From the NCBI GenBank assembly GCA_964511305.1, contig CAZEEU010000001.1, positions 127,214-191,213 on the forward strand: DNA of 64,000 bases, given 5' to 3'. The DNA comes from an uncultured Gammaproteobacteria bacterium (lineage in GTDB: Bacteria > Patescibacteriota > Microgenomatia > Levybacterales > GWA1-39-11). The notes beneath the pieces were generated by a model that ran no database searches, was not told the DNA's origin, and was given only the letters and a program-made list of their open reading frames with translations. Positions 84 through 59,181 of this stretch are shown one piece after another (position 1 is the stretch's first letter; each line of letters begins with the position of its first letter). A program made the translations under genes and the position numbers.

Positions 84-1259
84 TTATCTAAGAAAGATTT
101 TAAGAATATTTTTTTTGTCTTTTTCAGTAAGTTCTGGATTGTTGCCAATATACAATCCCCTCTCATGTGCAATCTGAGCGTTCTCCATTTTGAAATTCTT
201 TTCCGCCGTATACTTTTTAAAAAATGGCTGCGCAGTAATATCGCCACCAACAATCGGACGTATCTCAATTTTACCATCACATATGCTTACTAGCTCGTCT
301 CTTAATTTTTGGCTTTTACAAATTATCGGAATTGCAAAATTTGAAAGTAAATCCATATGGTCATAATAAATTGGCAGGTAATAATCTTTTTGTTGATATA
401 TCTTAAGAGCAACTTCAAGAAAGTTCTTGTTTCTTTTTTTTATAATTTCTTCAAGAAATGACAGCTGCACATTTCCAAGAAATCCATTTATTTCAGTGGG
501 TCGTAAGTTGTAACCGAGATCATAAAATGTGTATCTTGAATAAAATGTAGAATTAACCTTATATTTATTCCTCATTTTAGTCTGTTTGGCTACTGAAAGA
601 TTCCTATCCCATCCATGAGCCCTAACAATTCGCAACTGGTGAGCTAAATCTCCATTATCAGTACAAATTGCACCTCCTTCGATTGTTGACATATGATGTC
701 CTACATAAAAAGAGTTTGTGCTCGCAAAACCATAATTTCCTAATTTCATACCTTTATAAACACTCCCCAGCGACTCACAGTTGTCCTCAAGAAGAATTAT
801 TTTTTCTTTTCTGCAAAAGTCATAAATCTTGTCGATGTCATCGCAAAAGCCTAAAGTATTGGTTAAAAAGAGGGCCTTAAGTTTATGTTTTTTTGTAGCT
901 TCAATGAATTTTGCAGAGGAGACATTTAATGTATTAAGTTCTATGTCAATTGGTATAGGCGTTAGTCCAAGCTCAATTATTGGCATTACATTGGTTGACC
1001 AAGTAAGTGCTGAAAAGGCGACGTTATCTCCTTTTCTTAACTTACCAAGATTAAGTAATGCTTGTATAAGTGCTAAGTTTGCAGAACTTCCACTATTAAC
1101 AAATACACAATATTTCCTCTCTTGGAAGTGAGCAAACTTTTTTTCAAATTTTTCACATTCTGCGCCAAAGCTTAATTGCTTGGCGCTTCCTACAAAACTC
1201 TGCAATGCTTTGATAGTTGCCGGTTCTTTATAAAAAGTAGACTTGACGAGCTTTATCAT
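84..1259 (-). CDS. DegT/DnrJ/EryC1/StrS-family PLP/PMP-dependent sugar-modifying enzyme; probable sugar 3-dehydratase (ColD/E1-like) rather than aminotransferase
   Basis: 391-aa ORF with the DegT-fold signature (…FVNSGSSANLAL…, …ILLEDNCESLGS…). At the position of the Schiff-base Lys the sequence reads 'SFYVGHHMSTIEGG'. The paralog at 15984..17144 has 'SFHAIKNMSTGDGG' there, so Lys is replaced by His, as in the PMP-dependent 3-dehydratases ColD and E1. Confidence 0.8.
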   Translation of the reverse strand: MIKLVKSTFYKEPATIKALQSFVGSAKQLSFGAECEKFEKKFAHFQERKYCVFVNSGSSANLALIQALLNLGKLRKGDNVAFSALTWSTNVMPIIELGLTPIPIDIELNTLNVSSAKFIEATKKHKLKALFLTNTLGFCDDIDKIYDFCRKEKIILLEDNCESLGSVYKGMKLGNYGFASTNSFYVGHHMSTIEGGAICTDNGDLAHQLRIVRAHGWDRNLSVAKQTKMRNKYKVNSTFYSRYTFYDLGYNLRPTEINGFLGNVQLSFLEEIIKKRNKNFLEVALKIYQQKDYYLPIYYDHMDLLSNFAIPIICKSQKLRDELVSICDGKIEIRPIVGGDITAQPFFKKYTAEKNFKMENAQIAHERGLYIGNNPELTEKDKKNILKIFLR

Positions 1260-3139
1260 GATTTCCGAATACGAACGTATGGGACAGTAACATAAGCCAA
1301 AAAGATTATGATCGAAATAATACTTATAGGCAACAGCATTTTTATATATTTTTGCGGCTCGTAATACAGTTTTGCTTTAGAGGAATCTGTTGGCAAATCA
1401 AAACTGTTAATTCCTTGGTAGTTGCTTGATTTTATAGCTTTACCATTAATATCTAGGGTCCAATATGGAGAATACGATTCTGAGAATAATAAAGTGCCGT
1501 TTTTACTATCAGCAAAATTTAACTCGTATTCTGTAGCAGTTATATTTTCTGACTTGACTTGTGAAATGCTGTTCAGGATGCTGAATCTATTTCGATATCC
1601 TGTATTTTCAAAAACGGCGATCTTACCAAAATTTTTAACCTTTTTAAGATATTTAATTTTATCTATCTTTTCAATGACATTTAAATAATTCTTCTGTGAA
1701 TATTTATGGTCATCTATAAATATTTCACCCTCACTATCAAAAGGTACAATTACATATTTTATAGAGTATAAATCGAGCTTACCATTCAGATTGGGCAATT
1801 CTTTCAGAATAGTTACTGGATCATTTTTAGAGAATAATTCCCCTCGACCAATTGCAGGACTCACTGTTGAGAAGTACCCATATCGTTGCCACTGGGGAAT
1901 CCATAATGTCCTAAATGACTCTTTCTGATCAATAATGAAATCTGAAAGCTGTTTGTATTCTTTTGGCACCTCTCTCATGCGTGGTATATTTACCTGTCCA
2001 TAAAAAATAAATCGATTCAAAAATATCCAATACATTACAAACAAAACCATAAGAATTTTAAGGCTAATAAATTTCAATTGCTTTTTTGAATGAAAATAAG
2101 AACTTATACAATTGATGCCAGAAGGGATTAATAATGAATAGGCAAAGGCAATAAGCATATAAAACTTTGTAGAATCGCGAAACGCACCAAAACCAGGAAT
2201 ACTATCGTATAAAAATTCATATACTTTTCCGAATGGCTCATTTGTTCCCTTAGCCAAAAATATGCCCACCAACGAAATCAACGTCAATACTATTATCTGA
2301 TTTCTTTCTTTTAGCTTTGCTTTCAATCCAAGCAGTGGAACGAAAGCAAGTATTGGAAGTAATAAAAATTCTGACTTTACAAAAGATACTTTCCCAAAAA
2401 TATTATCAGGCCAATTAGGATGAAGTAGAGATATAGAATTTTCAAGGTGTGCAAAGCTAAAAAAGCTAGCAGATCCAGTAACACCACTGCCTACACTCTT
2501 TTGCGCAAATAAAATAAGTGGCACTATCCAAAATAGGTGACTTAAAAATATAACTCCTATTGCAGTCAGCATCAACATGATTGTATCTTTAACTACAATT
2601 TTTCTTAAAAATATAAAAACAAAGAATAGCAGAAAAAGGCCAACTGCAAAGATACGTGGGTCAAATAGAGTGAGAAGAGACGAAACAAGTCCAAAAGTAA
2701 TCGATCTTCTCAGCGAATATTTTTCAATCGCATTTATAAATGTCAAAACCATAAAAGGAAGCAATGAATATGCAAAAGCTACGCCAAGTTGTCCTCCAAA
2801 AAATATTAAGAGAAAATACGTATTCGTTGAGAAAATGAGTCCAGCAATAATTGCTAGGTAGTTGTTGATAGAAAATATTTTTTTAAATAAATAGAAACCC
2901 CCGAGAAAAGAACTAATAGAGATAGGCAAAATCCATAATAAAATACTAGCCCAAAGCCATCCCATTCCAAGTTGTGAAATTGTTGCAGTAAGATTTAGAT
3001 AGCTTGTAATCCATAGAGTATTTATAGACTGAATTCCCAATCCGCTATTTAAAGATGAATCCCATGAAGATGGAATGCCAACAAATGAGGCTAGGCTGTC
3101 TTGCCAAAAGAATCTCCAGTCTCCTCTTATAATATCCAT
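1256..3139 (-). CDS. Polytopic membrane protein (GT-C-like) with a YfhO-type C-terminal extracytoplasmic domain and C-terminal TM anchor
   Basis: 627-aa ORF with many hydrophobic helices in the N-terminal half. The C-terminus reads '…SYSPYWTLDINGKAIKSSNYQGINSF…' followed by a hydrophobic anchor (LLPISIISIIIFLAYV), the same module seen in the YfhO-like proteins of this window. Its start codon abuts an in-frame TAA that separates it from the 104-aa ORF upstream. Confidence 0.75.
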   Translation of the reverse strand: MDIIRGDWRFFWQDSLASFVGIPSSWDSSLNSGLGIQSINTLWITSYLNLTATISQLGMGWLWASILLWILPISISSFLGGFYLFKKIFSINNYLAIIAGLIFSTNTYFLLIFFGGQLGVAFAYSLLPFMVLTFINAIEKYSLRRSITFGLVSSLLTLFDPRIFAVGLFLLFFVFIFLRKIVVKDTIMLMLTAIGVIFLSHLFWIVPLILFAQKSVGSGVTGSASFFSFAHLENSISLLHPNWPDNIFGKVSFVKSEFLLLPILAFVPLLGLKAKLKERNQIIVLTLISLVGIFLAKGTNEPFGKVYEFLYDSIPGFGAFRDSTKFYMLIAFAYSLLIPSGINCISSYFHSKKQLKFISLKILMVLFVMYWIFLNRFIFYGQVNIPRMREVPKEYKQLSDFIIDQKESFRTLWIPQWQRYGYFSTVSPAIGRGELFSKNDPVTILKELPNLNGKLDLYSIKYVIVPFDSEGEIFIDDHKYSQKNYLNVIEKIDKIKYLKKVKNFGKIAVFENTGYRNRFSILNSISQVKSENITATEYELNFADSKNGTLLFSESYSPYWTLDINGKAIKSSNYQGINSFDLPTDSSKAKLYYEPQKYIKMLLPISIISIIIFLAYVTVPYVRIRKS

Positions 3140-3454
3140 TTATTTGCTTTTAACCTCACGAAGGCATAACACAATGTATAGCACTGTAAGAAAGTATCCT
3201 AATATACTAACTTGCTCTGCATAATAAGTTTTTGAGAATGCAACAAAAAAATAATTAAGACCAAATGATATCAACCCGAAGAGCAGTATTTTCTCAGAAG
3301 AAGGTCTAAATAGAACAAGTGCGCTAATAACAAAGGAGAATAGAACTACCCCATCAAAAAAAGTACTAACAATATTTATATACGGCAATCGAATAAGGAA
3401 AGAAACAATGACTGCAATTAGAATAGATACTATGAATTTAACAACTGTTTTCAT
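3140..3454 (-). CDS. Small 4-TM membrane protein, possibly a GtrA-like polyprenyl-phosphate-sugar flippase component
   Basis: 104 aa with four hydrophobic segments and an 'SFGLNYFF' segment that loosely resembles the GtrA 'SFxxNxxxTF' region. It overlaps the upstream 1111-aa gene by 4 bp (ATGA), and the small-protein-within-GT-C-operon arrangement fits. Family assignment is weak. Confidence 0.5.
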   Translation of the reverse strand: MKTVVKFIVSILIAVIVSFLIRLPYINIVSTFFDGVVLFSFVISALVLFRPSSEKILLFGLISFGLNYFFVAFSKTYYAEQVSILGYFLTVLYIVLCLREVKSK

Positions 3455-6400
3455 TTTGCTTTTTTCTGCCTAGATATAACAAGTATTACAAGTGATGCCA
3501 AAAAAGTAGTTACAGAAATAATGCACCCGTATAAAAATAGTTCTTGAATACGGTATTCAATAGTAAGTTTTGTCGTACCAGAGGGGATGACCCAACCATT
3601 TGCATAACCATTTACTTGTATGTGCTTTGTCCCAGGCTTTGTAGCCCAATTGTCATTATATGACTGACCCATTACAAATATACTTTTCTTATCTTGGTGC
3701 ATTGGACTCATTATGTACTGCGTGTTGCTTCTTTTTACTGGCATAACACTCATACTAGACACGTTATTTTTATTGCTGACGAAAATGATGTCAGGAATTG
3801 CAACTTTACTCATAACTAAATCACTAACTTCTACGTCTGACTTGCCGTAGCCCTCTAAGCTTTCCCTATTACAAATTACTAAATGAAATCCATTATTACC
3901 AGGTGAGGCATATGTTGTTTCATATGAATTAGACTTTAGTTGAGAGGTTAATACGTCAATACTCTGAGCACTCATTACCGACTTTCCCTTAGGAACAAAC
4001 GCAACAAAGAATTTATCATCTACCTCTTTTCGCAAATGATTAAAAGTAACTTTATATATATCGTTTCTTTCGGAAAGCACCGCCTGAGAATAATAACAAC
4101 CATCTTTCATGGCTTTTAGATCTAGGGCTTTATTACCTTCAATCAAATTCTTTTTTTGCTGCTTCAGAACAACTCTATTTTTTCCCTTTTCAAGATTGTG
4201 AGATCCCAAATCGTACCAGCCATTGTATTTGTTAACGACTAGCGTACTTTTACCATCTGCATTTATACCAAGATCTACAGATTCTCCAATTTCAATATTG
4301 TCATTGGGTCGATAATAAACTTGATAAGTATTTTTTTCTGGAGAATTTACCAAAAGTCTTTTCTCTTCCTCGGTGCTTGTTCTCCAGGTTCTTGTGTCAA
4401 TCAAGTTCCAATTTATTTGAAGTGCATTGGCAAGACCCAGAAGCTTTGGCTGATAATTAGGGTACTTCTCAATAATTTGCCTGATAATAACTTGTTGCGT
4501 CCTTATGTAGCTTAGAAGATCAATTAAATTGTCGTTAGTAAAACTGTGTTTTGAATTTATCAATGTAGACGTTAATTCTTCTGAGGTTCCTGTAGCCTCA
4601 TTTATAATTCTTAAAATTATTCTATCCTCCTCAGCACTATCAAGACTTTTTTGAATACCCATAATATCTCTGAGTGTTTTTTGTGAATAAAATATGGATA
4701 ATTCTACAGGCTTTTTCTTAAGTTGAGCTTCCTGCTTTAGCTGCTGATTCTGAATATAAAAATATAAAACAGATCCTTGTGTAATTGTTGGAATATATTG
4801 CAAAGTGTTAATAAATTTCCACTGCAAGTTACAAGTGATGCACATGCTGTCTAAGTAATAATTAGTCGGGGCTAGTCCAATATTTTTGTAAGGCAAATCG
4901 TCCTTAAAGAGAACCTCAGGCTGTGATGCATTGAAATTCGGTAGGGTTACTATTTTTCCAAATGTGTTTGTATCGCCCCCGATATAAGAATACGAATCGC
5001 TGTTTGTAAAATTCCCCTCACTTTGATAAAAATCATATACTTCCCATTTACCAAAAGTTTTAACTTCCCCCAAGTTCTTTGAGCTGAGAGCTGCTTTGAA
5101 CCGATCAGGACTAACCGATGGAGAATTTGGATTATCCCAGACAAAGTCATTTCTAAGAATAAAAGATTGAATGCCCAGTATTTTTGCTAAATTTTGCCAA
5201 CCTTCTTCATTTTTTTCCATCATGCCGTACAACTTCGACAATAAAGCGTCTTCGTCCTTGGACATATAGAGACTGTTATTTAAGATGGGTGAATCAGTTA
5301 ATAAAGTAGTTATAGGCGCAAGACTCCAATAACCCCAAGCGTATTGCTCTACCTTGCCATCCGCATTAGGTGGAGGAAGCATTAACGTTTTTTTATCGCC
5401 TCTTGTTGCACTACCACTCCATTTCCCAAAATCATATATGTACTGTGGCACTTCAACCCTATTTGACTGCTTTCCTTTTATATAGTCGAAAAATGAACCA
5501 TTTAAAAATGGGTAACTATAAAGAACTATTCCACAACAAAAAATTAAGTAAAAAAGATAAGCAGCTTTTGGTTTTTTATGTGCAATTTTTACTGCAACAA
5601 AATTAACAAAAAATCCTAATAAGACTGCGTAGGCAAGCCAGAGTGAAGGGGAGAATTTATAGAAAGGGTTACGAAAGGCAATGAATCCCGGGACGTACTT
5701 CATAAGCATTATGTATAAAGCCCCAAATGGTGGATGAGCACCAGCTACAAAAACAAGACTTACGACAGCAAGAAAAGCAAAAAATAATAGGATTTTACGC
5801 TCCGTTTTTTTCTTGTACAAAAGTAATGTTATGAATGCTGCTACTGGTATTAAAGAACTTATTAAAATCAGAAACGGATTATGCAAGAATACGTTTGCAT
5901 ACGGATGACTTGGATTTTGATACCACTCTGGCACTCCCTGAAGTCTAATTAAATTGCTATATGAACTATTTTCACTTACATATTTAACCCAATCTAAAAT
6001 TCCATCCTGGCCTCCAAAAAAGTCCACTGACTGACTGTAGGAAGTTTTTAAGGAACTTCCAAATGGAATTAACCAATACGAATGCAGCAACACGCTAAAT
6101 AAAAGAACAGTTCCAAAAAGCTTTGACAACATTAAAAGTCTTTTTCCTGATGCCTCTTGAATAAAGTAATATATGACAAACACAAGCAAGGAGATAATAA
6201 CTCCTCCAAAAAGAGGAAGACTGGCAAGTCCGTTCAGAAGAAAAAATATTAACGCTATAAGAATGCCAGTTGTCAGTGTTTTTCTTTTTCCTTCATTCCA
6301 ATCCAAAAGTAGTGCAATCATGAGGGGAAGCGCTGCGTACACTGAAAATTTAGTTCTCTCAGCAACAAACCATCCCTGCAATAAAAAGTGATTTATCATG

Positions 6401-6786
6401 TAGAAAATTGCAACAGGAAGGCTGAAGAATTTTAGCTTTAGCTTGTCCTCTATCTTTGTTGCCAGGTAGTACATCGACAGACCAGGCAGCACGAACCAGA
6501 AAATAAAAGTGATTTTCTGCATAGATTGCAAGCCAAATCCAGCATATGTGACCACTGCTTCAAGTCCGTGAATGAATATTCCGGGAAGTGCGTACGTCTG
6601 ATCATTACCAAACCCGAATCTGACTGTCCATGTATAGAGTCTGTCCAGAAAATGCGGGATAGGAGCCAATGGAAGGCCAGCATCATGCCCTAAAATAACC
6701 TGTGATTGCCCAAACCAAAGCAATGGGATCAAACCCAAAAGAAGAATTATGAGTATCTCTATTCTACGTTGACTGATAAATTTCAT
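3451..6786 (-). CDS. Very large membrane protein: N-terminal ~550-aa multi-TM (GT-C-like) domain, ~500-aa extracytoplasmic domain, C-terminal TM anchor
   Basis: 1111-aa uninterrupted ORF. The N-terminus begins with 'GHDAGLPLAPIPHFLDRL…' and is followed by more than 10 hydrophobic helices. The central and C-terminal region is hydrophilic and β-rich, and the protein ends with a hydrophobic anchor '…GCIISVTTFLASLVILVISRQKKAK'. Confidence 0.8.
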   Translation of the reverse strand: MKFISQRRIEILIILLLGLIPLLWFGQSQVILGHDAGLPLAPIPHFLDRLYTWTVRFGFGNDQTYALPGIFIHGLEAVVTYAGFGLQSMQKITFIFWFVLPGLSMYYLATKIEDKLKLKFFSLPVAIFYMINHFLLQGWFVAERTKFSVYAALPLMIALLLDWNEGKRKTLTTGILIALIFFLLNGLASLPLFGGVIISLLVFVIYYFIQEASGKRLLMLSKLFGTVLLFSVLLHSYWLIPFGSSLKTSYSQSVDFFGGQDGILDWVKYVSENSSYSNLIRLQGVPEWYQNPSHPYANVFLHNPFLILISSLIPVAAFITLLLYKKKTERKILLFFAFLAVVSLVFVAGAHPPFGALYIMLMKYVPGFIAFRNPFYKFSPSLWLAYAVLLGFFVNFVAVKIAHKKPKAAYLFYLIFCCGIVLYSYPFLNGSFFDYIKGKQSNRVEVPQYIYDFGKWSGSATRGDKKTLMLPPPNADGKVEQYAWGYWSLAPITTLLTDSPILNNSLYMSKDEDALLSKLYGMMEKNEEGWQNLAKILGIQSFILRNDFVWDNPNSPSVSPDRFKAALSSKNLGEVKTFGKWEVYDFYQSEGNFTNSDSYSYIGGDTNTFGKIVTLPNFNASQPEVLFKDDLPYKNIGLAPTNYYLDSMCITCNLQWKFINTLQYIPTITQGSVLYFYIQNQQLKQEAQLKKKPVELSIFYSQKTLRDIMGIQKSLDSAEEDRIILRIINEATGTSEELTSTLINSKHSFTNDNLIDLLSYIRTQQVIIRQIIEKYPNYQPKLLGLANALQINWNLIDTRTWRTSTEEEKRLLVNSPEKNTYQVYYRPNDNIEIGESVDLGINADGKSTLVVNKYNGWYDLGSHNLEKGKNRVVLKQQKKNLIEGNKALDLKAMKDGCYYSQAVLSERNDIYKVTFNHLRKEVDDKFFVAFVPKGKSVMSAQSIDVLTSQLKSNSYETTYASPGNNGFHLVICNRESLEGYGKSDVEVSDLVMSKVAIPDIIFVSNKNNVSSMSVMPVKRSNTQYIMSPMHQDKKSIFVMGQSYNDNWATKPGTKHIQVNGYANGWVIPSGTTKLTIEYRIQELFLYGCIISVTTFLASLVILVISRQKKAK

Positions 6787-44472: not shown

Positions 44473-44487
44473 TTTTTTAGAAAAAGT

Positions 44488-48009: not shown

Positions 48010-49467
48010 TCATTTTTTGGCTCTTATTGCTTTTACCACAAATACAAGAGTCTTAGTCAATTCTTCTCTTGCCATAAAGAACATTGCCCCGGCATACACT
48101 CCCAAAGACAGAATTCCAAAAATAACCATCATAAGAAAAGACGTAACAAAGACACTTGTGACATATGAAAATCCAAACATAAGAATGGCGGCTAAAAATT
48201 GCTTATAGGTTGTTGATATAGCTGAAAATTCAACATAACGTCTTGCAACAAAAAATACCCCAACTGAAGTAAGAGCAACTGCAAATGAAGCAGCAGCAAC
48301 ACCGTTATACCCCATGAGTGGGATGAGAATAAGCGTTGTGCCCCATATCATAATTGTCCAGAAGATCATGAAATACAACGTGACCTTGACCTTGCCAATA
48401 GCATTCAAAAAGTTAGTAAGAGGTGTAGAGACAGATGAAATTACGCTACCAAGAGAGAAGAACATTATTGACATAATTGCAGGTTCCCATTTGTGATAAC
48501 GCGGAATGAAATCTATCAGATAAGGCGAATAGGCAATGATTCCGGCAGCAACCGGAAAGATTGCAAAAGCTATCAGAAAGATTGACTTTTCGATAGCTAT
48601 TTTCAGAGCTGCTCTATCATCTTGTAGTCTAGCAAAAGATGGAAATGTGATTTTTATAATATTATCCATAACTAACCTAAGAGGAAGATAGGCTACCCGT
48701 TGAGCAAACCCGATATATCCAAGTTGTGCTTTTGGAAGTAGACCTCCCAAAAATATTGTTAAAAAATCATCCTTAAAAAGAGCTAGTATGCTGTTTGTCT
48801 GAAAAGGTATTCCAAATGAAATAAGACTTTTAAAAGATTTTTTGTCGAAGCCAAGACCTATCGGCCACGATTGCACCCCATAAGTCGCTACCAATCCGAC
48901 AATGCTTCTAAAAAGAACTGCCAGGATAAAGCTTGTTACACCAAGTCCTGAAATAGCGCATATTACGAGAGTTGCATTATATGTAATATTCTCAAGCACT
49001 TGAGGAACTACTAGTCTATTGTAGTCTAGTTTTCTTTCTAAAATAATGGTTGGAATTGTTCTGAGTGAGGTTAGGAAAAATGAAATGAGAAGTACAACAA
49101 GTAGGATATGCCCAGATTCACCCAACTTGTAAAAGGATGCAAGATTTCCAGACAAAAGGATTGCCGGTACTACAAGGCACAAAACGAGTGCCTGTTGAAT
49201 AGTAAAAACTGTTCGAAGATCTGTCTTGGTAGGCTCTTCTTTCTTCTGTATTAATGAAGCAGCAAGGCCTATATCCTGAAAGTAATTAAAGAAAACAATA
49301 ATTGAAGATACTACAAAAAATGTTCCGAAAGTCTCTGGCTCAAGATAAAGAGTGAGAACTACACTTGAGGCTACACCTAAAAGCTGTATAAGAAATGATC
49401 TGGAAACTAAAGCAAAAACCCCTTTTACAGATTTCGTCGCGATGGCATGCAATTCATTTTCGTCCAT
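48010..49467 (-). CDS. Wzx/MOP-superfamily flippase-like polysaccharide biosynthesis protein
   Basis: About 485 aa with about 14 hydrophobic helices. The track ORF extends to 49539 but would overlap the upstream GT2 by 56 bp. The internal start 'MDENELHAIATK…' at 49467 removes the overlap. Confidence 0.75.
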   Translation of the reverse strand: MDENELHAIATKSVKGVFALVSRSFLIQLLGVASSVVLTLYLEPETFGTFFVVSSIIVFFNYFQDIGLAASLIQKKEEPTKTDLRTVFTIQQALVLCLVVPAILLSGNLASFYKLGESGHILLVVLLISFFLTSLRTIPTIILERKLDYNRLVVPQVLENITYNATLVICAISGLGVTSFILAVLFRSIVGLVATYGVQSWPIGLGFDKKSFKSLISFGIPFQTNSILALFKDDFLTIFLGGLLPKAQLGYIGFAQRVAYLPLRLVMDNIIKITFPSFARLQDDRAALKIAIEKSIFLIAFAIFPVAAGIIAYSPYLIDFIPRYHKWEPAIMSIMFFSLGSVISSVSTPLTNFLNAIGKVKVTLYFMIFWTIMIWGTTLILIPLMGYNGVAAASFAVALTSVGVFFVARRYVEFSAISTTYKQFLAAILMFGFSYVTSVFVTSFLMMVIFGILSLGVYAGAMFFMAREELTKTLVFVVKAIRAKK

Positions 49468-49483
49468 ATGTACTCTTCTTCTA

Positions 49484-50197
49484 TCATATCCTTTTATTGA
49501 GGATGTCAAACCACAAAATAAAACTTTCAAGTACTGCACGGACGACTACAGCTATATTTGCTCCGCTTTGAGCGCCATATTCACGAGGAAAGTGATTAAC
49601 TTCAACTTCTTTTATCTTCAACTTTTTCCTTGTTGCTTTTGCGAGTATTTCAGTTGTAATCATAGCCCCTTCAGAACGCAACGGCATAATTTGCAAAAGG
49701 GCTTCACGCTTGAACATTTTAAATCCACAGTCGATATCTTTAAAATAAAATCTGAAAAAAATGTAATCCCAAATCTTCAACATGTGCATAAGCATATGTC
49801 TGGACATACTGTCGCGTCTCTTTTTTCTAAAACCTATAACAATATCAGAGCCGGGAAGAGCCGCAATAAGTTTTTTAACCTCCGCGAAATCAAATTGTCT
49901 ATCACCATCCGTGAATACAACATACTTATATTTTGCATTTTCAAAGCCTTCCTTAAGAGCTGCCCCATACCCTCTATTTGGGGTGTGGCTGATAACACGC
50001 ACGTTCTTATATTTTTTTGAAAGCTCGAGGCCAATTTGATACGTCTTGTCTGATGAACCATCATCAATAATAAGAATTTCCCAATTTGTAGCAACTTCTT
50101 TAATAATCGGCATGGCATTCTCTACCACATGCTTTACGTTTTTTTCCTCGTTCCAAAAGGGGAAGAATACTGAGAGCTCAGGAAGTTTTTTTTCCAT
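49484..50197 (-). CDS. GT2 polyprenyl-phosphate sugar synthase-like (DPM1/GtrB/CsbB-type)
   Basis: 'LSVFFPFWNEEKNV…ILIIDDGSSDKT…HTPNRGYGAALKEGFENAKYKYVVFTDGDRQFD'. 237 aa. Confidence 0.85.
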   Translation of the reverse strand: MEKKLPELSVFFPFWNEEKNVKHVVENAMPIIKEVATNWEILIIDDGSSDKTYQIGLELSKKYKNVRVISHTPNRGYGAALKEGFENAKYKYVVFTDGDRQFDFAEVKKLIAALPGSDIVIGFRKKRRDSMSRHMLMHMLKIWDYIFFRFYFKDIDCGFKMFKREALLQIMPLRSEGAMITTEILAKATRKKLKIKEVEVNHFPREYGAQSGANIAVVVRAVLESFILWFDILNKRI

Positions 50198-51872
50198 ACG
50201 ATTTAGGTAACATTATACCAAGTAATATAGCAAAAAAAGCAAGTATTGATAGCACATTTCCGACCTTTTCTATGGTGGTTTGTCTGAAAGAAATATCTAT
50301 AATACCCTCCCCTTTTTGGACATTTATATCCATGCCGCGAGGAGCTTGGGTAATTATCCCAGTCTTACCATTTATAGTAGCGTACCATGCAGGAAAGAAA
50401 GCCTGATTGATATGTAAAATTCCATTGGTTAAAAATTTATATTTAATCTGGGTCCCCATTGTCTTCTTTGGAACCTCGGCAATGTATCCCGTGCCAACTA
50501 GTATCTCAAGTTTGGAAGAAGGAAGATCTTCGATGTTTTTTGGTTTGTTAAAGTCCTTTGGCATATATTCATCAGATATTTTTGAGGCAGTATATCGAAT
50601 ATAACTTTGATTTGTATAATATGAAGAATCAAAACTCGTATACTCTTGGGGATTAAATAGCTTCAAATTTAAGAGGATAGTCAAACAACAAATAGCAACA
50701 ACTACTAGAAGTCTTATATTCTGTGAACTTTTAACTACTATATAGGTTGTTCCATACCCTGAAATAATTGCTATTGCCAACGCTATAAAATTTATAAATC
50801 TCCACGGATACTGAATATACGCCATCAGCGGAAAATTTTCCCATACAGGTCCTGAAATAGATAAGCAAAAAAATGATGCAAGAGTCAAAATAACCAGAGC
50901 AACAATTGTTACCTTTTCATGTTTTTCAAATCTATGTTTTGTAAATCTATAACCTAACAGCAAAACTCCCAGCAGCAACAAAACAAGGTTTATTTTCCCT
51001 AATTTAAAACTAAGACCATCCAGACAGCCTGGCACTGATCCACCAAATCCCCACTGACTTTCCCAAAATTGAGAAATACAGACATAGTGATCCGCAAAAT
51101 AAGCGCCTCCACCAAGTTGGGACGAAACATTCGTATAACCCATCTCAAGAAAAGCTGGAATTACGTAAAATGAACTTAAAGCTATTCCCAAAACAATACC
51201 CCCAACAACAAGCAGTAGAAATCTTTTTTTATCTTGAGCAAAAAAAGTCATTGCTATAATTACAAATGGCAGAATTATAAAAAGCATGAGCAATGTGAGA
51301 TTGTGAGAAATTGCTACAAGAAAAATACCAAACGCAAGAACAAAAATTGCTGGAAACGAACGGAAAAAAGATTTACTTTTCTCAGAAAAGAGCATAAAAA
51401 GACCTAAAAGAATCATAGGCAGGAATGCATACGCAAATATCTCTCCAACTGCCCCTCTAACATATAGATTAAGCGCATGATAAGGAAAATAAGCATAAAC
51501 AATTGCACTTACAACACCTGCTGAATTCCCGAATAGTTTTCTACTCAATAAAAACATCGTAATTGGGGCCGCAAGCATTCCCGCAATAAGCATCACTTTC
51601 GTTGCAAAAAGAGAATCAAATCCAATTAGATTAATTAAGCCCCCAAAATAATAAGGAAAAGGTCCGTAAAAATTGAAGATTGGGTATCCATATCCATAAC
51701 CAAGATTTTCAACCCATCTTACCGGAAACATTCCGTGCAAAAGCGAGTTAGACATTTCATAGACTCGCACAACAGTAGTGTTATCGTGAAATGTAAAAAA
51801 ACCTGACTGAAATAACGGAAGGATAGTACCCAACGATAGCAAAATTACTCCGATTATTATTAGTTTTTTCAT
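50178..51872 (-). CDS. Polytopic membrane protein, uncharacterised GT-C-like 'family X'
   Basis: 564 aa: 'FHDNTTVVRVYEMSNSLLHGMFPVRWVENLGYGYGYPIFNFYGPFPYYFGG…YAYFPYHALNLYVRGAVGEIFAY' and the C-terminal '…FFPAWYATINGKTGII…' with a terminal TM. Confidence 0.8.
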   Translation of the reverse strand: MKKLIIIGVILLSLGTILPLFQSGFFTFHDNTTVVRVYEMSNSLLHGMFPVRWVENLGYGYGYPIFNFYGPFPYYFGGLINLIGFDSLFATKVMLIAGMLAAPITMFLLSRKLFGNSAGVVSAIVYAYFPYHALNLYVRGAVGEIFAYAFLPMILLGLFMLFSEKSKSFFRSFPAIFVLAFGIFLVAISHNLTLLMLFIILPFVIIAMTFFAQDKKRFLLLVVGGIVLGIALSSFYVIPAFLEMGYTNVSSQLGGGAYFADHYVCISQFWESQWGFGGSVPGCLDGLSFKLGKINLVLLLLGVLLLGYRFTKHRFEKHEKVTIVALVILTLASFFCLSISGPVWENFPLMAYIQYPWRFINFIALAIAIISGYGTTYIVVKSSQNIRLLVVVAICCLTILLNLKLFNPQEYTSFDSSYYTNQSYIRYTASKISDEYMPKDFNKPKNIEDLPSSKLEILVGTGYIAEVPKKTMGTQIKYKFLTNGILHINQAFFPAWYATINGKTGIITQAPRGMDINVQKGEGIIDISFRQTTIEKVGNVLSILAFFAILLGIMLPKSYGKKTS

Positions 51873-51878
51873 GATAAT

Positions 51879-53534
51879 TTACCTGAATTTCAAAAGAGGC
51901 CTTAAAAGCACAAACAATAAAACTAAAAACGTTAAAATGCTAACTCCGTTAGCTATTGCTCGTGGAAATGTTTCAATGAAAAATAGTTCAACAGAATCCG
52001 CATACTTGCCTGCGCTTATAGTCATAACCCCTTGAGGATTTTGGTAATCTATTTTTGTTTCTACCCCATTTATATATGCTCTCCATCCTGGATAAAATAT
52101 TGTGTTGATTTTAAATACCGTATCGCTCGTAGCAGTAAATTTGAATTTCACTGAATTTGAATTATAAACAGTATTGGAAATTGTAGCATTCCCACTCAGC
52201 ACTTCGACTTTGTCAGTAAAATGTTTGGTTGGCCTGTCTGTTACCCAAAGCGGCATCAATTCTTGCGAGCTTGTAGTCGTTGCTTCATTTGTTAAATAAT
52301 ATTGGTCCGAATAATAACTATATTTCACTGGCCGCGCATAAGGATACACCTGCGCAACAGCAACTATTGCCATGATAAATACTATTATCTTAATTTCTCT
52401 ACCTTCTATTACTAAAAACCCAGCGAGCAGAGAAGACAAAAATCCGAGTTGTGACAATAATGTCCACGGGTAATTAATTTCGGACAGAAGTGGCGTATTG
52501 GTCCAAATAAGCGATGATATTGAGAAAGTCCCAAGAAGGCAAATTACATAACTAAAAAGAATTATTATCGCAAACTTCTTAATAGGAGTCTGTATAAATT
52601 TAGACTTTATAAATGAGAATAAAAGAATAAAAAATGAGACGATAATAACCCCAATCTGTCCCAGTCCAAGCTGATAAGTAAATGCACCTTTTTCTGTCGG
52701 TGTACCATAGTCCCAAGACGGAATGATTAATTTATCAAATGGTACAAAATAGAGATTTCTGTCAGCAATAGGAATTTTTGAAAGTAAAATATTACTTTTT
52801 TCGTACAAAGCCGGGAACCAAAAAAAGAAAGAGAGCCCTGCTCCAAAAAATAAACACAATAAAAAAGTCTGCAGTACGTCAAATCTTTTTTCTATAAATA
52901 TTCGAATACCAATAAATAAAACAAGAACAGGCAGGAAGAGGATGGTCATAATATTATGAGTCATGACCAAAGCACCAATACTAACTGACAACATAAGGAC
53001 TGTAATTCGGGAGAAAGGGGACTCAAATAATCGTAAGGCAAAAAGTAATATGAACGGAAATAAAATCATAGCAATACTCTCCCCCACCGACCCTCTAACA
53101 TACAAATCTACCATTCTATAGGGTAGATATATGTAAAGAATAGAAGATACAATTCCCGACCATTTATTACTCCATAACTTACTGGATGCTAAATACATAA
53201 AGACAGAAGATAGCAGAACACTAAGTATAAAAAGTAATTTAATACTTAATATAAAACTATGAAGAAAAAGATTAAAAATAACGCCAATATAATAAGGCAT
53301 CGGATATGCGAAATTAAAAAGAGGATATCCATATCCAAAATTTAAAGCGCCGCTGTAACGAGGTGGGAACTGCATGTCTCGTAGGGTTCTGAACATATCG
53401 CCAAGCCTAACAACGGCCCACTCCCCATCGTGTGTTGGAAAATATCCTGAATTAAAATATGGAAGAATAACCGGCACGCAGAGAAGAAGAATTATTAAAA
53501 AAGGTAATGTCTGGAATAATAACTTTTTCAACAT
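51879..53534 (-). CDS. Polytopic membrane protein, uncharacterised GT-C-like 'family X'
   Basis: 551 aa: 'THDGEWAVVRLGDMFRTLRDMQFPPRYSGALNFGYGYPLFNFAYPMPYYIG…YIYLPYRMVDLYVRGSVGESIAM' and the C-terminal 'IFYPGWRAYINGVETKIDYQNPQGVMTI' with a terminal TM. Confidence 0.8.
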   Translation of the reverse strand: MLKKLLFQTLPFLIILLLCVPVILPYFNSGYFPTHDGEWAVVRLGDMFRTLRDMQFPPRYSGALNFGYGYPLFNFAYPMPYYIGVIFNLFLHSFILSIKLLFILSVLLSSVFMYLASSKLWSNKWSGIVSSILYIYLPYRMVDLYVRGSVGESIAMILFPFILLFALRLFESPFSRITVLMLSVSIGALVMTHNIMTILFLPVLVLFIGIRIFIEKRFDVLQTFLLCLFFGAGLSFFFWFPALYEKSNILLSKIPIADRNLYFVPFDKLIIPSWDYGTPTEKGAFTYQLGLGQIGVIIVSFFILLFSFIKSKFIQTPIKKFAIIILFSYVICLLGTFSISSLIWTNTPLLSEINYPWTLLSQLGFLSSLLAGFLVIEGREIKIIVFIMAIVAVAQVYPYARPVKYSYYSDQYYLTNEATTTSSQELMPLWVTDRPTKHFTDKVEVLSGNATISNTVYNSNSVKFKFTATSDTVFKINTIFYPGWRAYINGVETKIDYQNPQGVMTISAGKYADSVELFFIETFPRAIANGVSILTFLVLLFVLLRPLLKFR

Positions 53535-53535
53535 A

Positions 53536-55170
53536 TTAATTTCCTACAATTCTATATGCAATTCTTCCATCCGGAAAGCGAATCTCTCTTAGCGGGGCCG
53601 CTACCGGAATTTCTTGCTCAGTGCCAATAAGCAACGTTTTTGGCAGCTTTTCATCACTTATAAAGTTAATATTTCTAAATTCATACTTACCTATTTTTCT
53701 AGAGAAGCGATCGACCTGACCATTTCCGTTTGTATCCCAATTTTTTTGATACCACGAGGGATCTATCTTGTTATAGAAAAGATAGTAAATATAAGGCTGA
53801 TCATATATATATGTCATAATTACTCTGTCATAGTTATCTTCAAGCCCATGAGCAGCAATAATAACTTCCTTATTTCCGTATTGCCAAAAGTAGCCTACTT
53901 CTCGAGGTGTAACTGAATAATATTGATTCAAATAATAGGTAAAATTAATTGCAAAAATTAGAAATCCAAAACTAATCGCAATAGCCCTGTAATTGGCCTT
54001 CTTAATCTTATTGATTATTCCGTAAAGAGATGCAGCTCCATTTGCCACTAAAAATATAAGACCAGGTACCATTCCGATTGCTCTTACTCCATGAGGTGTA
54101 CCAGTAGTTACTGCTGCTGGCAGTGGTGCAATTATCAAAAGGGCTAGCATTGCAATTATCTTTTTTGAGGGGTTCTTAAATACTGAAATAAGACCCCAAA
54201 TCAAAAGAGGCAATTCAAAAAGATACATCATGCCCATGTCTTTTGCATGGTGATGCAGGCTTCCAGCACCTATGGTAAATAGATAATTGAAATCAAAATG
54301 TGTTAGATAATTCTTTTCAGCCGTGTATAGGTAATAAAATCTTCTATTATGAAATACTTGCCCAATAACATTCCCAGTGCTCTTGTCATTCTGCAATTGT
54401 GCAAGTTGATTTTGCAATCCTTCTGATTCTCCAAAAATTGAAACCATAGAAAGTCGTGCTTTGGAACCCTCAGGATTTAAGAAGCCTATATATATAGGTA
54501 GAGAGAATATAAAAATTATTAGTGCAGAGATAATAAGCTGTTTTTTGTAGACAAGTAGTTTTTTTATAAACAAACTTATTAATACCAGAAGAAAAATAGG
54601 AACTACCAATCTAAAACTGTGGTAAGAATACAAGCAGATTACAAATGATATCGAAGAAAGTACAAGGTACCACCTACTTTCTAGTCCTTTAATAAATAGA
54701 TAAAAGGCAAGTAAAAGAAAGAACAATCCCACATTCCCCTCATATGCTGCTCTAGAAAATTGAAGATGCCAGGGTGATATAGAAAGAAAAAAAGCTGAAA
54801 ATAGAGCTACTATCAGTCCTAACTTATGATCTTCTTTATCAAAAAGTTTTTTTACCAAATAGAACATCACAATTACAGATAAAAATCCGAAAAGGGCTGA
54901 GGGAAAACGGACCGCAAATTCAGTAAGTCCGAAAATAGCAACTGGCAAGACATCTAAGTAAATATATACTGGGGGCTTGTAGTCATCAAATGAGCGAAAC
55001 TCTATCGGAAAAGAAGTTCCGTATTCGTCTTTTCCGGTTTTTAATATTGAATATGCATTGTACCCGATGCTTGTTTCGTCCCAATTAAGACTTGGAGGGT
55101 TTTGTCCTAACATGAAAAATCTGAGAATAAATGCAAGGACAACAATCCCTATAAGGTATTTGCTTTTCAC
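53536..55170 (-). CDS. GT-C glycosyltransferase, GT39/ArnT-PMT-like (subfamily A)
   Basis: 544 aa: '…SLNWDETSIGYNAYSILKTGKDEYGTSFPIEFRSFDDYKPPVYIYLDVLPV…'. Confidence 0.85.
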   Translation of the reverse strand: MKSKYLIGIVVLAFILRFFMLGQNPPSLNWDETSIGYNAYSILKTGKDEYGTSFPIEFRSFDDYKPPVYIYLDVLPVAIFGLTEFAVRFPSALFGFLSVIVMFYLVKKLFDKEDHKLGLIVALFSAFFLSISPWHLQFSRAAYEGNVGLFFLLLAFYLFIKGLESRWYLVLSSISFVICLYSYHSFRLVVPIFLLVLISLFIKKLLVYKKQLIISALIIFIFSLPIYIGFLNPEGSKARLSMVSIFGESEGLQNQLAQLQNDKSTGNVIGQVFHNRRFYYLYTAEKNYLTHFDFNYLFTIGAGSLHHHAKDMGMMYLFELPLLIWGLISVFKNPSKKIIAMLALLIIAPLPAAVTTGTPHGVRAIGMVPGLIFLVANGAASLYGIINKIKKANYRAIAISFGFLIFAINFTYYLNQYYSVTPREVGYFWQYGNKEVIIAAHGLEDNYDRVIMTYIYDQPYIYYLFYNKIDPSWYQKNWDTNGNGQVDRFSRKIGKYEFRNINFISDEKLPKTLLIGTEQEIPVAAPLREIRFPDGRIAYRIVGN

Positions 55171-55214: not shown

Positions 55215-56864
55215 ATGAAAAAAATTAAACCCTACCTGGCAATTATCCTCCTATCCCTTCCTCCATTAATTTACATTTTTCTGAATCCAAATTTACCACA
55301 TACCAGTGATGGACTCATGCATGTGGCAAGGTCTGCTGCGTATCTCAACGAGATCCAGGCTGGTCAGTTCCCCATAAGATGGGCGCATCAATTTGATTAT
55401 GGCTATGGCACTCCAATCTTTAACTTTTTCAATCCTTTGCCATATGCTTTTGGGGCTCTTCTGCTCTCTATCGGAATAAATCTTGCAACAACTCTTAAAA
55501 TAGGTTTTGTTGTAACACAGCTTCTTTCCGGAATTTTTATCCTTCTTTTTGCAAGAACATTTTTTAAAAATTCCAAGACGGCGTTTTTAGTTGCTGTCAT
55601 GTATCAATATGTACCTTTTAGACTCGTTGAGATGCATACACGTGGCGACATAGGATGCTTATACTCGTACATGACTTTTCCATTACTAATGTATGCAATA
55701 ACGGTTTTTTTGAAAAAAAATACAATACCCGGATTTTTACTCTTAGGTCTAGCGTCGGCTTTACTACCTTTAGGGCACAATATTAATGGGTTTGTTTTCT
55801 TCTGTCTCGGCTCTTTATACGTACTATTTGCTACAAAAGACGTCAAAAAAATTCTTGTAACTTTTTTGGCAATGGGATTTGGATTACTTTCTATTTCGTA
55901 TTTCTTGCTCCCAGCCCTTACAGAGCTTAAGTACCTCAATGGCTACATATTCAGTAAGCACCTGTTCTATATGCATTTTCCGGCAATTTACAAATTGCTA
56001 CTTCCGAATATCACAAATAACCCCTCTTTAAGAGTTGCTGAAGTATCTGTTCAGGTTGGATTATTTAATGTAGCTTCCCTCATTGGCTTTATATACCTTT
56101 TTGCTAAAAAAAGAATCGCAAAGGAAAATTGGAAAATGAGCTCCTATCTTCTTGTTGTAGGACTTCTCACTTTTCTTATAATGCTCCCAATAACAAAACC
56201 TCTCTGGGAACATATTGAGTACCTCAGGCAATTTCAATTTCCTTGGCGCTTTCTAGGAATACTGATTTTTGTAACTCCAATGGCCGGCGGAATAGTATTT
56301 GAAAAATTAGATTTTATAAAAAAGTCCAATATAAAATATTACGTACTTTTGGCTCTTATTATACTAAGCACTGTTTTTTATTGGGGCCCATATCAAGGCT
56401 TTCAGAAGATTGACGAGAACTACTATAGGAATTTTCCGGGATCGACAAACTACTTTGCTGAGGTAAATACGATATGGATGGAAAAGGAACCACAAGAGTA
56501 TCCCAAAAAACGTGTTGAAATTGCAGCAGGGAATGCACAAATTTCAAATATAACTATATTACCAGAACGACATACATATACTGTTTTGTCAAAAGAGGAA
56601 AGTACAGTTATCGACAAGACGTACTTTTATCCAGGGTGGAAAGCGTACGTGAATGGGATCGATACTCCAATAGAGTTTCAGGATGCAAACTATAGAGGGC
56701 AGATCACTTTCAAAGTTCCAACAGGCAACAACAATGTAGTTGTTGCTTTTGAACAAAACAAAATAATGAAGACCGGAAATATAATAACACTAACTTCTAT
56801 TGCCTCTGTTATATTAATGCTAGGATATTACTTCATCAAAAAATATGGCAAAAGGAAAAAATGA
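55215..56864 (+). CDS. Polytopic membrane protein, uncharacterised GT-C-like 'family X'
   Basis: 549 aa: 'HTSDGLMHVARSAAYLNEIQAGQFPIRWAHQFDYGYGTPIFNFFNPLPYAFG…YQYVPFRLVEMHTRGDIGCLYSY' and the C-terminal 'TYFYPGWKAYVNGIDTPIEFQDANYRGQITFKVPTGNNNVVVAF' with a terminal TM. Confidence 0.8.
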   Translation: MKKIKPYLAIILLSLPPLIYIFLNPNLPHTSDGLMHVARSAAYLNEIQAGQFPIRWAHQFDYGYGTPIFNFFNPLPYAFGALLLSIGINLATTLKIGFVVTQLLSGIFILLFARTFFKNSKTAFLVAVMYQYVPFRLVEMHTRGDIGCLYSYMTFPLLMYAITVFLKKNTIPGFLLLGLASALLPLGHNINGFVFFCLGSLYVLFATKDVKKILVTFLAMGFGLLSISYFLLPALTELKYLNGYIFSKHLFYMHFPAIYKLLLPNITNNPSLRVAEVSVQVGLFNVASLIGFIYLFAKKRIAKENWKMSSYLLVVGLLTFLIMLPITKPLWEHIEYLRQFQFPWRFLGILIFVTPMAGGIVFEKLDFIKKSNIKYYVLLALIILSTVFYWGPYQGFQKIDENYYRNFPGSTNYFAEVNTIWMEKEPQEYPKKRVEIAAGNAQISNITILPERHTYTVLSKEESTVIDKTYFYPGWKAYVNGIDTPIEFQDANYRGQITFKVPTGNNNVVVAFEQNKIMKTGNIITLTSIASVILMLGYYFIKKYGKRKK

Positions 56865-59181
56865 TCTCTTGATTCGTTTTGCAAAAACAAAAAACAATCT
56901 CTTTCTTGTCATTGCAGTTATTCTAACGGTATTATTTTTTTATCCCGTATTTTTGAAAGGATATACTCCATTTCCTGGCGACCTACTTCTTGCAGAATAT
57001 CAACCATGGAGGTCATATTCGTATGGTGGGATGAATCCAGGGGCGGTACCAAATAAAGCTCAGTACTTTGACTCAATACGCCAAATTTATCCATGGAAGA
57101 CGGAGGTTATTAGTCAAATAAAAAATGGTTCTTTTCCATTATGGAATCCTTATAATTTTAGTGGCGCCCCATTATTTGCAAATTTCCAATCTGCCGTCTT
57201 ATATCCATTAAATGTAGTTTATTTCTTTCTTCCGCAACACGCAGGCTGGAGCTTGCTAGTAATGATACAACCTCTCTTTTCCTTCCTAATGCTTTTTCTC
57301 TTCGCAAGAAAAATGGACATATCAAAAATAGGAAGTGTATTTGCTTCCATTGGATATGCATTCTCACTCTACATGACAACTTTTCTTGAGTACAATACCA
57401 TTGGTCACTTCCTCTACTTATTACCATTAAGCCTATTGCTCTTTGAATATTGCCTAGATGGAAAAAAATTGGCACTGCCTGCTCTTTCATTTATAATCGC
57501 CTCTACTCTTTTCGCAGGACACCTTCAACTTTTTGGAGGAAATCTTATGTTCTTAATTTTGTATATGGCTATAAGATTCGCACATACCCGAAAGAGCAAA
57601 ACCTTAAATTTGAAGATTCTATTTTTTGTAATTCTTGGGATTGGAATAGGGTGCATTCAACTCATACCAGGCATCGAGTTAATTTCTAACTCCGCAAGAA
57701 ACGCTCACAGTACTGAATTCTTTTACGATAATCTACTAATTCGGCCTGATCAGATTATTCTCTATTTAACTCCGGATATTTTTGGCAATCCAGCCGTTAA
57801 GAATTATCTTTTGCCCTTCTCCTACCCTTCAAAAGCCCTTTACGTCGGGATTACTACGATCGTACTATTTGCATTTGGTTTACTCTCAAAAAAAGGTCCG
57901 CTTCTCACAGCTGTCTCTATTTGCTCTCTTATTTTTGCCCTTTTAGTGTTCTTAAATCCGGTTTCTTTTCTTCTTTACAAACTTAATCTTCCAATCATTT
58001 CATCAAGCAGTCCGTCAAATTATATTTACCTTGTATCGATTGGTATTTGCTTAATTGCTGGCAGTGGATACGATTCTTTCGTTAAAGCAAATCTAAAAAA
58101 AGTAATTATTATTCTTTGTATTTTCCTTACATTTGTTGTTGGAATATATACTGCAACTACTTTTTTTCATATACCCATAATTAAAAATGGACTTATTCTA
58201 TCAATTGGAATATTTTTAGCCTCATCTTTCGCCTTTTTACTGATAAGAATTATCAAACTTCAAAAAATTGGAATCACGTTATCATTGCTAATACTTACTT
58301 TAGATTTATTCTATTTCTTTCATAAATTTAATTCATTCGTACCCTCTTCGTATATATATCCTTCAACTGCTATTAATACATGGATCAAAAAAAATGCACA
58401 ACTTGATAGATACTGGGGATTTAAGAGCGGACATATAGAGCCAAATTTTCAAACGCAAACTCAAACCTATTCGCTTGAAGGATATGATCCTCTTTTCCCA
58501 AAAACATATCATGACTTTGTAGCCCTTGCATCGAAAGAATCATCACGATCCGATGCTCTTTTAGATCACGATCTAACTGACACTAATTTAAAAATTCTAT
58601 CAACTACAAGCACTCGATATGTTATTGATAAATTCGAAAACGCATCGACTCAGGATACATTTCCTAGTAAGTATTTTCAGAAAGTATTAAGTCTAAACGA
58701 TTTTTCTGTTCAAGAAAACCTTAAATCAGCACCACGACTATTTCTTACAAAATCTTATTCGATTTATTCTAATCTTAAGGAATTTAAAAAAGAATTTGAA
58801 AAAAAATCGTTTGAGCCTGCTCATAGTATATTGTTAGAAAAAAATCCGTCACTTTCCAAAATTCAACTATCTGATTCAAAATTAGACATACGAACTTATT
58901 CTCCTTCTTATATAAAAGCAAATTCGATAACCAATACAGATTCTTTACTGTATTTGTCAGATACCTACTACCCTGGGTGGAACGCATATATTGATAATGT
59001 AAAAACCGAAATATATAAAGCCAATTACACTTTTCGTGCAGTAAAAGTCCCGGAAGGCACACACACAATAGACTTCAAATATGAGCCTAAATCATTTCAA
59101 TATGGATTGTGGATTTCTATTATTAGTATAATAACAGCAACAAGTTACGCCTTAAAATCACTATATGTTAAAAAAAAGTAA
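56845..59181 (+). CDS. YfhO-family polytopic membrane glycosyltransferase-like protein
   Basis: 778 aa: '…GSFPLWNPYNFSGAPLFANFQSAVLYPLNVVYFFLP…' and the C-terminal 'DTYYPGWNAYIDNVKTEIYKANYTFRAVKVPEGTHTIDFKYEPKSF' with a terminal TM. Confidence 0.8.
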   Translation: MAKGKNDLLIRFAKTKNNLFLVIAVILTVLFFYPVFLKGYTPFPGDLLLAEYQPWRSYSYGGMNPGAVPNKAQYFDSIRQIYPWKTEVISQIKNGSFPLWNPYNFSGAPLFANFQSAVLYPLNVVYFFLPQHAGWSLLVMIQPLFSFLMLFLFARKMDISKIGSVFASIGYAFSLYMTTFLEYNTIGHFLYLLPLSLLLFEYCLDGKKLALPALSFIIASTLFAGHLQLFGGNLMFLILYMAIRFAHTRKSKTLNLKILFFVILGIGIGCIQLIPGIELISNSARNAHSTEFFYDNLLIRPDQIILYLTPDIFGNPAVKNYLLPFSYPSKALYVGITTIVLFAFGLLSKKGPLLTAVSICSLIFALLVFLNPVSFLLYKLNLPIISSSSPSNYIYLVSIGICLIAGSGYDSFVKANLKKVIIILCIFLTFVVGIYTATTFFHIPIIKNGLILSIGIFLASSFAFLLIRIIKLQKIGITLSLLILTLDLFYFFHKFNSFVPSSYIYPSTAINTWIKKNAQLDRYWGFKSGHIEPNFQTQTQTYSLEGYDPLFPKTYHDFVALASKESSRSDALLDHDLTDTNLKILSTTSTRYVIDKFENASTQDTFPSKYFQKVLSLNDFSVQENLKSAPRLFLTKSYSIYSNLKEFKKEFEKKSFEPAHSILLEKNPSLSKIQLSDSKLDIRTYSPSYIKANSITNTDSLLYLSDTYYPGWNAYIDNVKTEIYKANYTFRAVKVPEGTHTIDFKYEPKSFQYGLWISIISIITATSYALKSLYVKKK

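Follow-up and report, generated by a model that had tools for sequence, protein, structure and literature searches.

Why should multispanning membrane proteins that seem to belong to different families all end in the same way? The question is raised by a 64,000-nucleotide stretch of contig CAZEEU010000001.1 (assembly GCA_964511305.1, positions 127,214 to 191,213, forward strand), called the window here, from an uncultured bacterium deposited under Gammaproteobacteria and placed by GTDB in the Levybacterales of the Patescibacteriota. Three YfhO-like proteins (family Y), four proteins of a second family (family X) and a singleton (family S) encoded in the window share a C-terminal sequence motif within what is termed the module below. 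A sequence-only reading of the window had taken this tail for a mobile extracytoplasmic domain, perhaps carbohydrate- or acceptor-binding, grafted onto different catalytic cores. The comparisons described below establish that the tails are homologous, as are the transmembrane (TM) cores that precede them, and that the two have diverged together. The tail is therefore probably best explained as the ancestral C-terminal region of a single clade of GT-C glycosyltransferases, comprising YfhO, PTPS_related and AftD-like proteins, in which it would serve as a structural cap-and-anchor.

All eight of the originally named open reading frames (ORFs) were confirmed in place, and each contains the motif '[YF]x[PN]xW…NG', which starts 69-80 residues before the C-terminus in seven of them. 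With genes named by their start coordinates, the copies are YYPGWKATINGR (42154), YYPGWNAYIDNV (56845) and FYPTWKMYIDGN (37743) in the YfhO-like proteins, YFPGWSVFDNGK (44488), FFPAWYATINGK (50178), FYPGWRAYINGV (51879) and FYPGWKAYVNGI (55215) in family X, and YSPYWTLDINGK in the singleton (1256). Alignment of the last 170 residues with MAFFT placed ~100 residues in register. For profile comparison, 120 homologs were gathered per family, with 55215..56864 as the query for X, 42154..44472 for Y and 1256..3139 for S, and the module profiles covered soluble sequence only, between motif -60 and motif +40 (~100 amino acids, aa), so that the hydrophobic helix was left out. These soluble segments matched one another in hhalign with probabilities of 99.0% for X-Y (E 5.7e-18), 97.1% for Y-S (E 7.1e-11) and 95.4% for X-S (E 1.9e-8), the motif falling in the same column in all three comparisons. 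Its positions were also equivalent in full-length alignments, a point at which the idea of a common module could have failed. Searched against the 45 long ORFs of the window, the X module profile found the three YfhO-like proteins at E 2e-11 to 9e-9 and the singleton at 3e-6, and the next-best E was 0.73. Chance or compositional similarity is rejected because the TM helix contributed to none of these profile E-values.

The same region can be recognized in existing models. Positions ~743-835 of the 835-position Pfam YfhO model (PF09586) correspond to the module; the best YfhO stretch of 42154 pairs aa 667-752 with model positions 743-833, and in 56845 aa 674-758 pair with positions 750-835. The C-terminal end of this model also weakly matches the tails of family X (44488, E 6.5e-4) and of the singleton (E 2.4e-3) at equivalent positions. 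The family X C-terminal module is not recognized by the PTPS_related model (PF10131), whereas the YfhO model does so weakly.

A six-frame scan of the window found exactly nine carriers of the module and zero fragments. The ninth, overlooked in the sequence-only reading, is 3451..6786, a protein of 1111 aa with the motif variant 'SYNDNW' and a terminal TM helix; its module is found by the S-module profile at E 2.4e-7 and has an hhalign probability of 94.6%. The nine modules, with the evidence for each, are as follows.

1259..1654, minus strand: module and TM anchor of the family S singleton 1256..3139 (627 aa); S profile E 6e-31, X profile E 3.4e-6, C-terminal end of the YfhO model E 2.4e-3.
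3454..3780, minus strand: module and TM anchor of the 1111-aa protein 3451..6786; hhalign against S pairs aa 1018-1110 with 532-625, E 7e-8.
37746..38045, minus strand: module without TM anchor of the YfhO-like protein 37743..40007 (754 aa); Y profile E 6e-30, frame ending 'KDSLF*'.
42157..42543, minus strand: module and TM anchor of the YfhO-like protein 42154..44472 (772 aa); Y profile E 2e-41, X profile E 1.9e-11.
44491..44910, minus strand: module and TM anchor of the family X protein 44488..46176 (562 aa); X profile E 2.5e-36, C-terminal end of the YfhO model E 6.5e-4.
50181..50573, minus strand: module and TM anchor of the family X protein 50178..51872 (564 aa), with the variant motif 'FFPAW'; X profile E 1.6e-17, Y profile E 1.6e-5.
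51882..52277, minus strand: module and TM anchor of the family X protein 51879..53534 (551 aa, without Pfam match); X profile E 1.7e-28, Y profile E 1e-9.
56445..56861, plus strand: module of the family X protein 55215..56864 (PTPS_related GT-C, 549 aa); X profile E 4e-41, sandwich at aa 434-512, TM helix at aa 516-548.
58786..59178, plus strand: module and TM anchor of the YfhO-like protein 56845..59181 (778 aa); matches to Pfam YfhO and to the C-terminal ends of the NCBIfam PgfM1 and PgfM2 models.

The expectation that a beta-rich segment is followed every time by a terminal hydrophobic helix holds in AlphaFold models for both elements, but the helix is absent from 37743..40007. This protein terminates, near 37743-37810, in 'HTVLFKDSLF*', and a GT2 glycosyltransferase gene (beginning 'MVDIVIPNYNG') starts immediately after it. 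A frameshift that hides the anchor was considered and rejected: the other downstream frames contain no hydrophobic helix, and the next gene directly adjoins. Of 356 database homologs, 354 have the terminal helix, and 37743..40007 may have been truncated or be decaying, or may be a rare form that lacks the anchor.

The fold of the module was modeled with AlphaFold from the last 154 residues of 55215..56864 and a 40-sequence alignment spanning all families (A1). The model has a predicted local distance difference test score (pLDDT) of 85 and consists of eight beta-strands at pLDDT >90 and a helix of ~33 residues; four strands precede the motif and four follow it, with 'PGW' at the turn into strand 5, before the chain enters the helix. 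A full-length model of the same protein (118 sequences; pLDDT 96.8; predicted template modeling score, pTM, 0.94) runs from a helical core, ending at about residue 384, through a linker to the sandwich at residues 434-512 and the helix at 516-548, and the pTM indicates that the module sits in a confidently fixed place with respect to the core. Profile comparisons and models thus bear out the first half of the sequence-only reading: the segment is a discrete extracytoplasmic beta-sandwich, homologous among its carriers, that leads into a terminal TM anchor.

The second half, in which the carriers represent three different membrane-protein families, gave way once the cores were compared. The multi-TM cores have the GT-C fold and belong to that superfamily. 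Profiles of the TM cores alone match in hhalign at 98.2% probability for X-Y (E 2.8e-14 over ~290 columns) and 98.5% for X-S (E 3.4e-15), with a weak match for Y-S (31%, E 5e-4), and at full length both X-S and Y-S align colinearly, beginning in the core and continuing through the terminal helix. The variable part is the insertion that separates core from module, with a length of 0 to ~425 residues. Family X proteins (~550 aa in total) have almost nothing between the last core helix and the module, YfhO and family S have an alpha/beta periplasmic domain there, and the 1111-aa protein has a further ~425 aa. The core of this last protein is S-like (aa 57-593 against S 32-519, hhalign E 2e-22), and its ~425-aa insert precedes an S-type module.

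Matches to curated families also overlap. The YfhO-like proteins score 89.5 bits (37743), 77.1 bits (42154) and 64.4 bits (56845) against PF09586, for which the cut-off is 28.5, and the family X protein 44488 also exceeds this cut-off (29.6 bits) through a core match to YfhO positions 71-392. Three of the four family X proteins match PF10131 (44488 at 47.6 bits, 50178 at 44.0 and 55215 at 39.3; cut-off 26.4), in each case with the N-terminal half of the model only (positions 1-318 of 621), and 51879 aligns with family X despite having zero Pfam matches. The singleton core matches GT-C_AftD (PF11847) weakly, at 27.2 bits (cut-off 26) and over only 159 of 661 model positions, and no Pfam match was found for 3451..6786. 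Full-length sequence searches of the PDB with the YfhO-like and family X proteins returned nothing relevant. Candidates for the acidic residue that GT-C enzymes conserve in the first extracytoplasmic loop are a nearly invariant aspartate of family X, D32, in 'THDG', which its position in the sequence places just after TM1, and a 'PD(I/V)I' motif conserved among the YfhO-like proteins. Partial matches to the NCBIfam model NF053599 ('MmpA family trehalose lipid delivery protein'), far below its cut-off, were observed at aa 263-352 of 1256..3139 (E 7e-10) and aa 310-426 of 3451..6786 (E 1e-4).

Phylogeny and wider sampling indicate that modules have stayed with their cores. In a neighbor-joining tree of 80 modules, X, Y and S are each monophyletic, matching the core families. 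For seven of the eight window modules tested, the nearest neighbor is a module of the same family from another genome, the nearest to 50178 being a Y-family module, and no window module is closest to another family's module from this window. A module hidden Markov model (HMM) search with the A1 profile over 1.84 billion representatives found the module in 73,482 cluster representatives at E <= 1e-3 and in 29,811 at E <= 1e-10. Among the matches listed, the module lies at the extreme C-terminus of single-unit proteins and ends each unit of multi-unit fusions. Short database matches that could have been free-standing module proteins were rejected as such; part of the family sequence still precedes the module in them, and they resemble truncated gene calls. 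Local HMMs were applied to 80 proteins of at least 500 aa among the matches listed, and cores and modules alternate strictly in all of them. The two types are nearly always equal: 33 Y-Y, 18 X-X, 10 S-S and 8 Y-Y tandem fusions. Pfam scans of 12 of these 80 gave only YfhO, PTPS_related or PMT_2, bar one DUF3105 match.

Polypeptides with two to four full core-sandwich-helix units in tandem were seen in this sample, namely P0361 (3329 aa), P0362 (3051 aa) and P0363, P0365, P0369 and P0375 (~1500-1650 aa); these may be genuine fusions or the product of merged gene calls.

Within the window itself, ten or so PMT_2-type GT-C paralogs were compared with the module, and none has it (probability 0.1-0.2%). 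A second set of GT-C paralogs, of PMT_2 type or Pfam-orphan, comprises 25171..26814, 29585..31261, 31258..32883, 53536..55170 and 60864..62507 on the minus strand and 59165..60874 on the plus strand. These have their own soluble C-terminal domain with the motif 'YD.I… PYIYYLFY.KYDP..YQ …LNG', lacking a terminal helix and unrelated to the YfhO-type module.

An architectural precedent for the window proteins is found in the mycobacterial arabinofuranosyltransferase AftD (PDB 6W98, 6WBX; PF11847/DUF3367), a protein of Actinobacteria. Like them, it combines a GT-C core, periplasmic domains, a beta-sandwich and a single re-entrant TM helix, and it has a motif, 'INPGW', that aligns with theirs. Its authors describe three carbohydrate-binding modules (CBMs) plus, listed separately, one 'structural' beta-sandwich, with a single re-entrant TM12 after the soluble domains; an AftD-specific TM13-16 bundle, which binds acyl carrier protein, follows TM12. 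The sole PDB sequence match of the 1111-aa protein's module is AftD residues 1207-1278 (E 0.028), in which 'QSYNDNWAT…VNGYANGWVIPSG' pairs with 'ESINPGWAA…VNGWQQGWVLPAG', placing 'SYNDNW' over 'SINPGW'. The hydrophobic stretch directly after these AftD residues is taken as TM12. A profile of family S plus the 1111-aa protein (A3) finds AftD at E = 1 in the same register. The module appears to be the counterpart of the AftD 'structural' beta-sandwich. A structural relationship between YfhO and AftD had already been noted by HHpred (PMC8035078). The proteins are not orthologs. AftD has ~1400 aa (vs 549-1111), three CBMs between the last core helix and the sandwich, TM13-16 and about 12% identity to the window proteins; all nine of the latter end within ~35 residues after the single terminal helix, or before it, and are without the AftD CBMs and TM13-16.

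The simplest reading of these results is that the core-sandwich-helix architecture is ancestral and that insertions were made between core and sandwich. On this basis the nine proteins would be extracytoplasmic, lipid-carrier-dependent GT-C glycosyltransferases of one clade. The eight-stranded sandwich would lie on the membrane's outer face with the invariant Trp in the 'PGW' turn, after which a single TM helix would return the chain to the cytoplasm. Sandwich and helix, secured to the membrane at either end, would then most likely act as a cap-and-anchor that keeps the periplasmic part fixed above the core's catalytic face. The helix would leave the C-terminus cytoplasmic, and it is this orientation that would make tandem core-module-core-module fusions possible. 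Donors, in the form of polyprenyl-phosphate-sugars, may be supplied by adjacent GT2 genes and Wzx-like flippases, as in the CsbB/GtcA/YfhO three-component systems. In such systems a GT-A enzyme loads polyprenyl phosphate with sugar, a flippase translocates it, and a GT-C enzyme transfers the sugar outside the cell (PMC8035078). Acceptors known for the clade include lipoteichoic acid (LTA) and wall teichoic acid (WTA) (PMC8035078), Ser/Thr-rich proteins for PgtC2 and PgfM1 (PMC12041528), and arabinan for AftD. Since the motif is conserved across enzymes with such different acceptors, an acceptor-specific binding role is unlikely. A structural cap-and-anchor function is no less likely than carbohydrate binding.

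Several observations weigh against this account. Conservation between X and Y per column is higher in the module (91 bits over 68 columns) than in the core (111 bits over 287), which fits strong constraint on the module and could also be read as more recent sharing or an old exchange. In P0361, X-like cores are joined to Y-like modules in the first two units. A Foldseek search of the PDB with the module model gave nothing at E <= 1e-3, the nearest folds, below significance, being C-terminal accessory beta-sandwiches of glycoside hydrolases rather than named CBM families, with another close match in AftD; the mixed-family module profile (A1) likewise had zero matches among PDB sequences. The link to AftD is marginal by itself where it depends on sequence (E 0.028 and E 1). 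Finally, C-terminal beta-sandwich CBMs bind the acceptor in other GT-C enzymes, EmbC and GT136 ORF12 (PMC11127046).

The last point bears on a reading that keeps the module ancestral and makes ligand contact its main task, with the sandwich walling the acceptor or polyprenyl-phosphate-sugar donor site and its Trp and family-specific polar patches ('IEFQDxNxRG' for X and 'YRADYxFRG' for YfhO) touching substrate. The Trp is invariant, each family strongly conserves charged or aromatic residues in its post-motif strands, the module's placement against the core is confident given the high pTM, and CBMs of EmbC, AftD and GT136 contribute to acceptor binding. We nevertheless consider this role unlikely: residues conserved across families are few and structural-looking (turn Gly and Pro, Trp), acceptors vary widely over the clade, and the AftD sandwich that appears to correspond to the module was termed 'structural' by its authors. 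EmbC and GT136 ORF12 (from Citrobacter youngae) resemble the window proteins in having a beta-sandwich that follows the final TM helix of the core and lies on the periplasmic side; unlike them, their domain ends the protein without a returning TM helix and binds acceptor polysaccharide (PMC11127046). No sequence match or specific fold match of the module to the EmbC and GT136 CBMs was found.

The original proposal, that a carbohydrate- or acceptor-binding CBM reached different multi-TM cores by shuffling as a mobile unit, fares worst and seems highly improbable. The module is indeed a discrete extracytoplasmic sandwich, with inserts of differing length between it and the core, its X-Y conservation per column exceeds that of the cores, EmbC and GT136 ORF12 provide examples of GT-C enzymes with C-terminal acceptor-binding CBMs, and a review proposes possible carbohydrate-binding domains in YfhO; yet the cores are homologous and colinear, module groups coincide with core families, core and module types occur together in 80 of 80 full-length listed proteins with one mixed case, neighboring PMT_2-type paralogs lack the module, and AftD has the same arrangement, with a putative counterpart separate from its CBMs. 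The ancestral cap-and-anchor is thus preferred. A bolder version is unlikely, though somewhat less so than ligand contact as the main role: sandwich and re-entrant helix may constitute a distinct unnamed domain family (>70,000 cluster representatives) that marks the AftD/YfhO/PTPS-related clade, with Trp and patches in the donor or acceptor site. If so, the ~550-aa family X proteins of Patescibacteria would represent a minimal natural AftD-type enzyme and a useful structural and mechanistic model.

Parts of this picture are already known. The curated YfhO family (PF09586), which includes the LTA N-acetylglucosamine transferase of B. subtilis and S. aureus, the WTA enzyme of L. monocytogenes and streptococcal PgtC2, PgfM1 and PgfM2 of protein O-glycosylation, has the module inside its model; the YfhO-AftD relationship has been noted, and the AftD beta-sandwich and TM12 have been solved. 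The window shares with these YfhO systems a gene context of GT2 genes and flippases. Its YfhO-like proteins differ in coming from a low-GC genome, with nearest named homologs in Levybacteria, and in being three paralogs, one of them anchorless: a C-terminal sandwich followed by a terminal TM helix is present in 42154 and 56845, and 37743 has the sandwich only. What is new is that PTPS_related and a largely Pfam-orphan family have the same tail, that nine paralogs carry it in one window and that the apparent grafting is common descent. The name PTPS_related ('6-pyruvoyl-tetrahydropterin synthase-related'), under which the database homologs of family X are annotated, is misleading, as the fold is that of a GT-C glycosyltransferase; these proteins and several Pfam-orphans can be regarded as YfhO/AftD-like GT-C enzymes.

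These findings open no new kind of biology and their significance is modest. They correct a tempting inference, since a recurrent end motif in 'different' membrane proteins reflects deep common ancestry here and not domain mobility. In divergent members the sandwich-plus-helix is often the sole match to the YfhO model, and it can therefore be used as a handle for the clade. The AftD cryo-electron microscopy structure also offers a template for thinking about YfhO-type enzymes that modify teichoic acids or surface proteins in Gram-positive pathogens.

The module carriers reside in what is almost wholly a glycan-assembly locus, with a GC content of 35% across the window. The density of glycosylation genes is unusual: at least 19 GT-C-like multi-TM genes are accompanied by nine genes for GT2 and one for GT4 enzymes, two flippases of the Wzx type, a pair of methyltransferases and one DegT aminotransferase, and almost all of these genes are on the minus strand. 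GT2 genes and flippases neighbor the GT-C-fold carriers, and this layout is that of the three-component systems. The closest named homologs of the proteins studied are from Candidatus Levybacteria, Roizmanbacteria and Gottesmanbacteria, all Patescibacteria; the nearest named relatives of the genome, Levybacteria, have small genomes.

Other ORFs in the window deserve brief mention. Two plus-strand frames, 30471..30941 (156 aa) and 49352..50020 (222 aa), lie antisense inside longer minus-strand genes and are probably not genes. The genes 12318..13808 (plus strand) and 13805..15274 (minus strand), neither with a Pfam match, encode paralogous membrane proteins in convergent orientation and share a 4-nucleotide overlap at their ends; the two proteins are 37% identical over ~480 aa (E 3e-115) and have 'LCIPHQITT' in common near the C-terminus.

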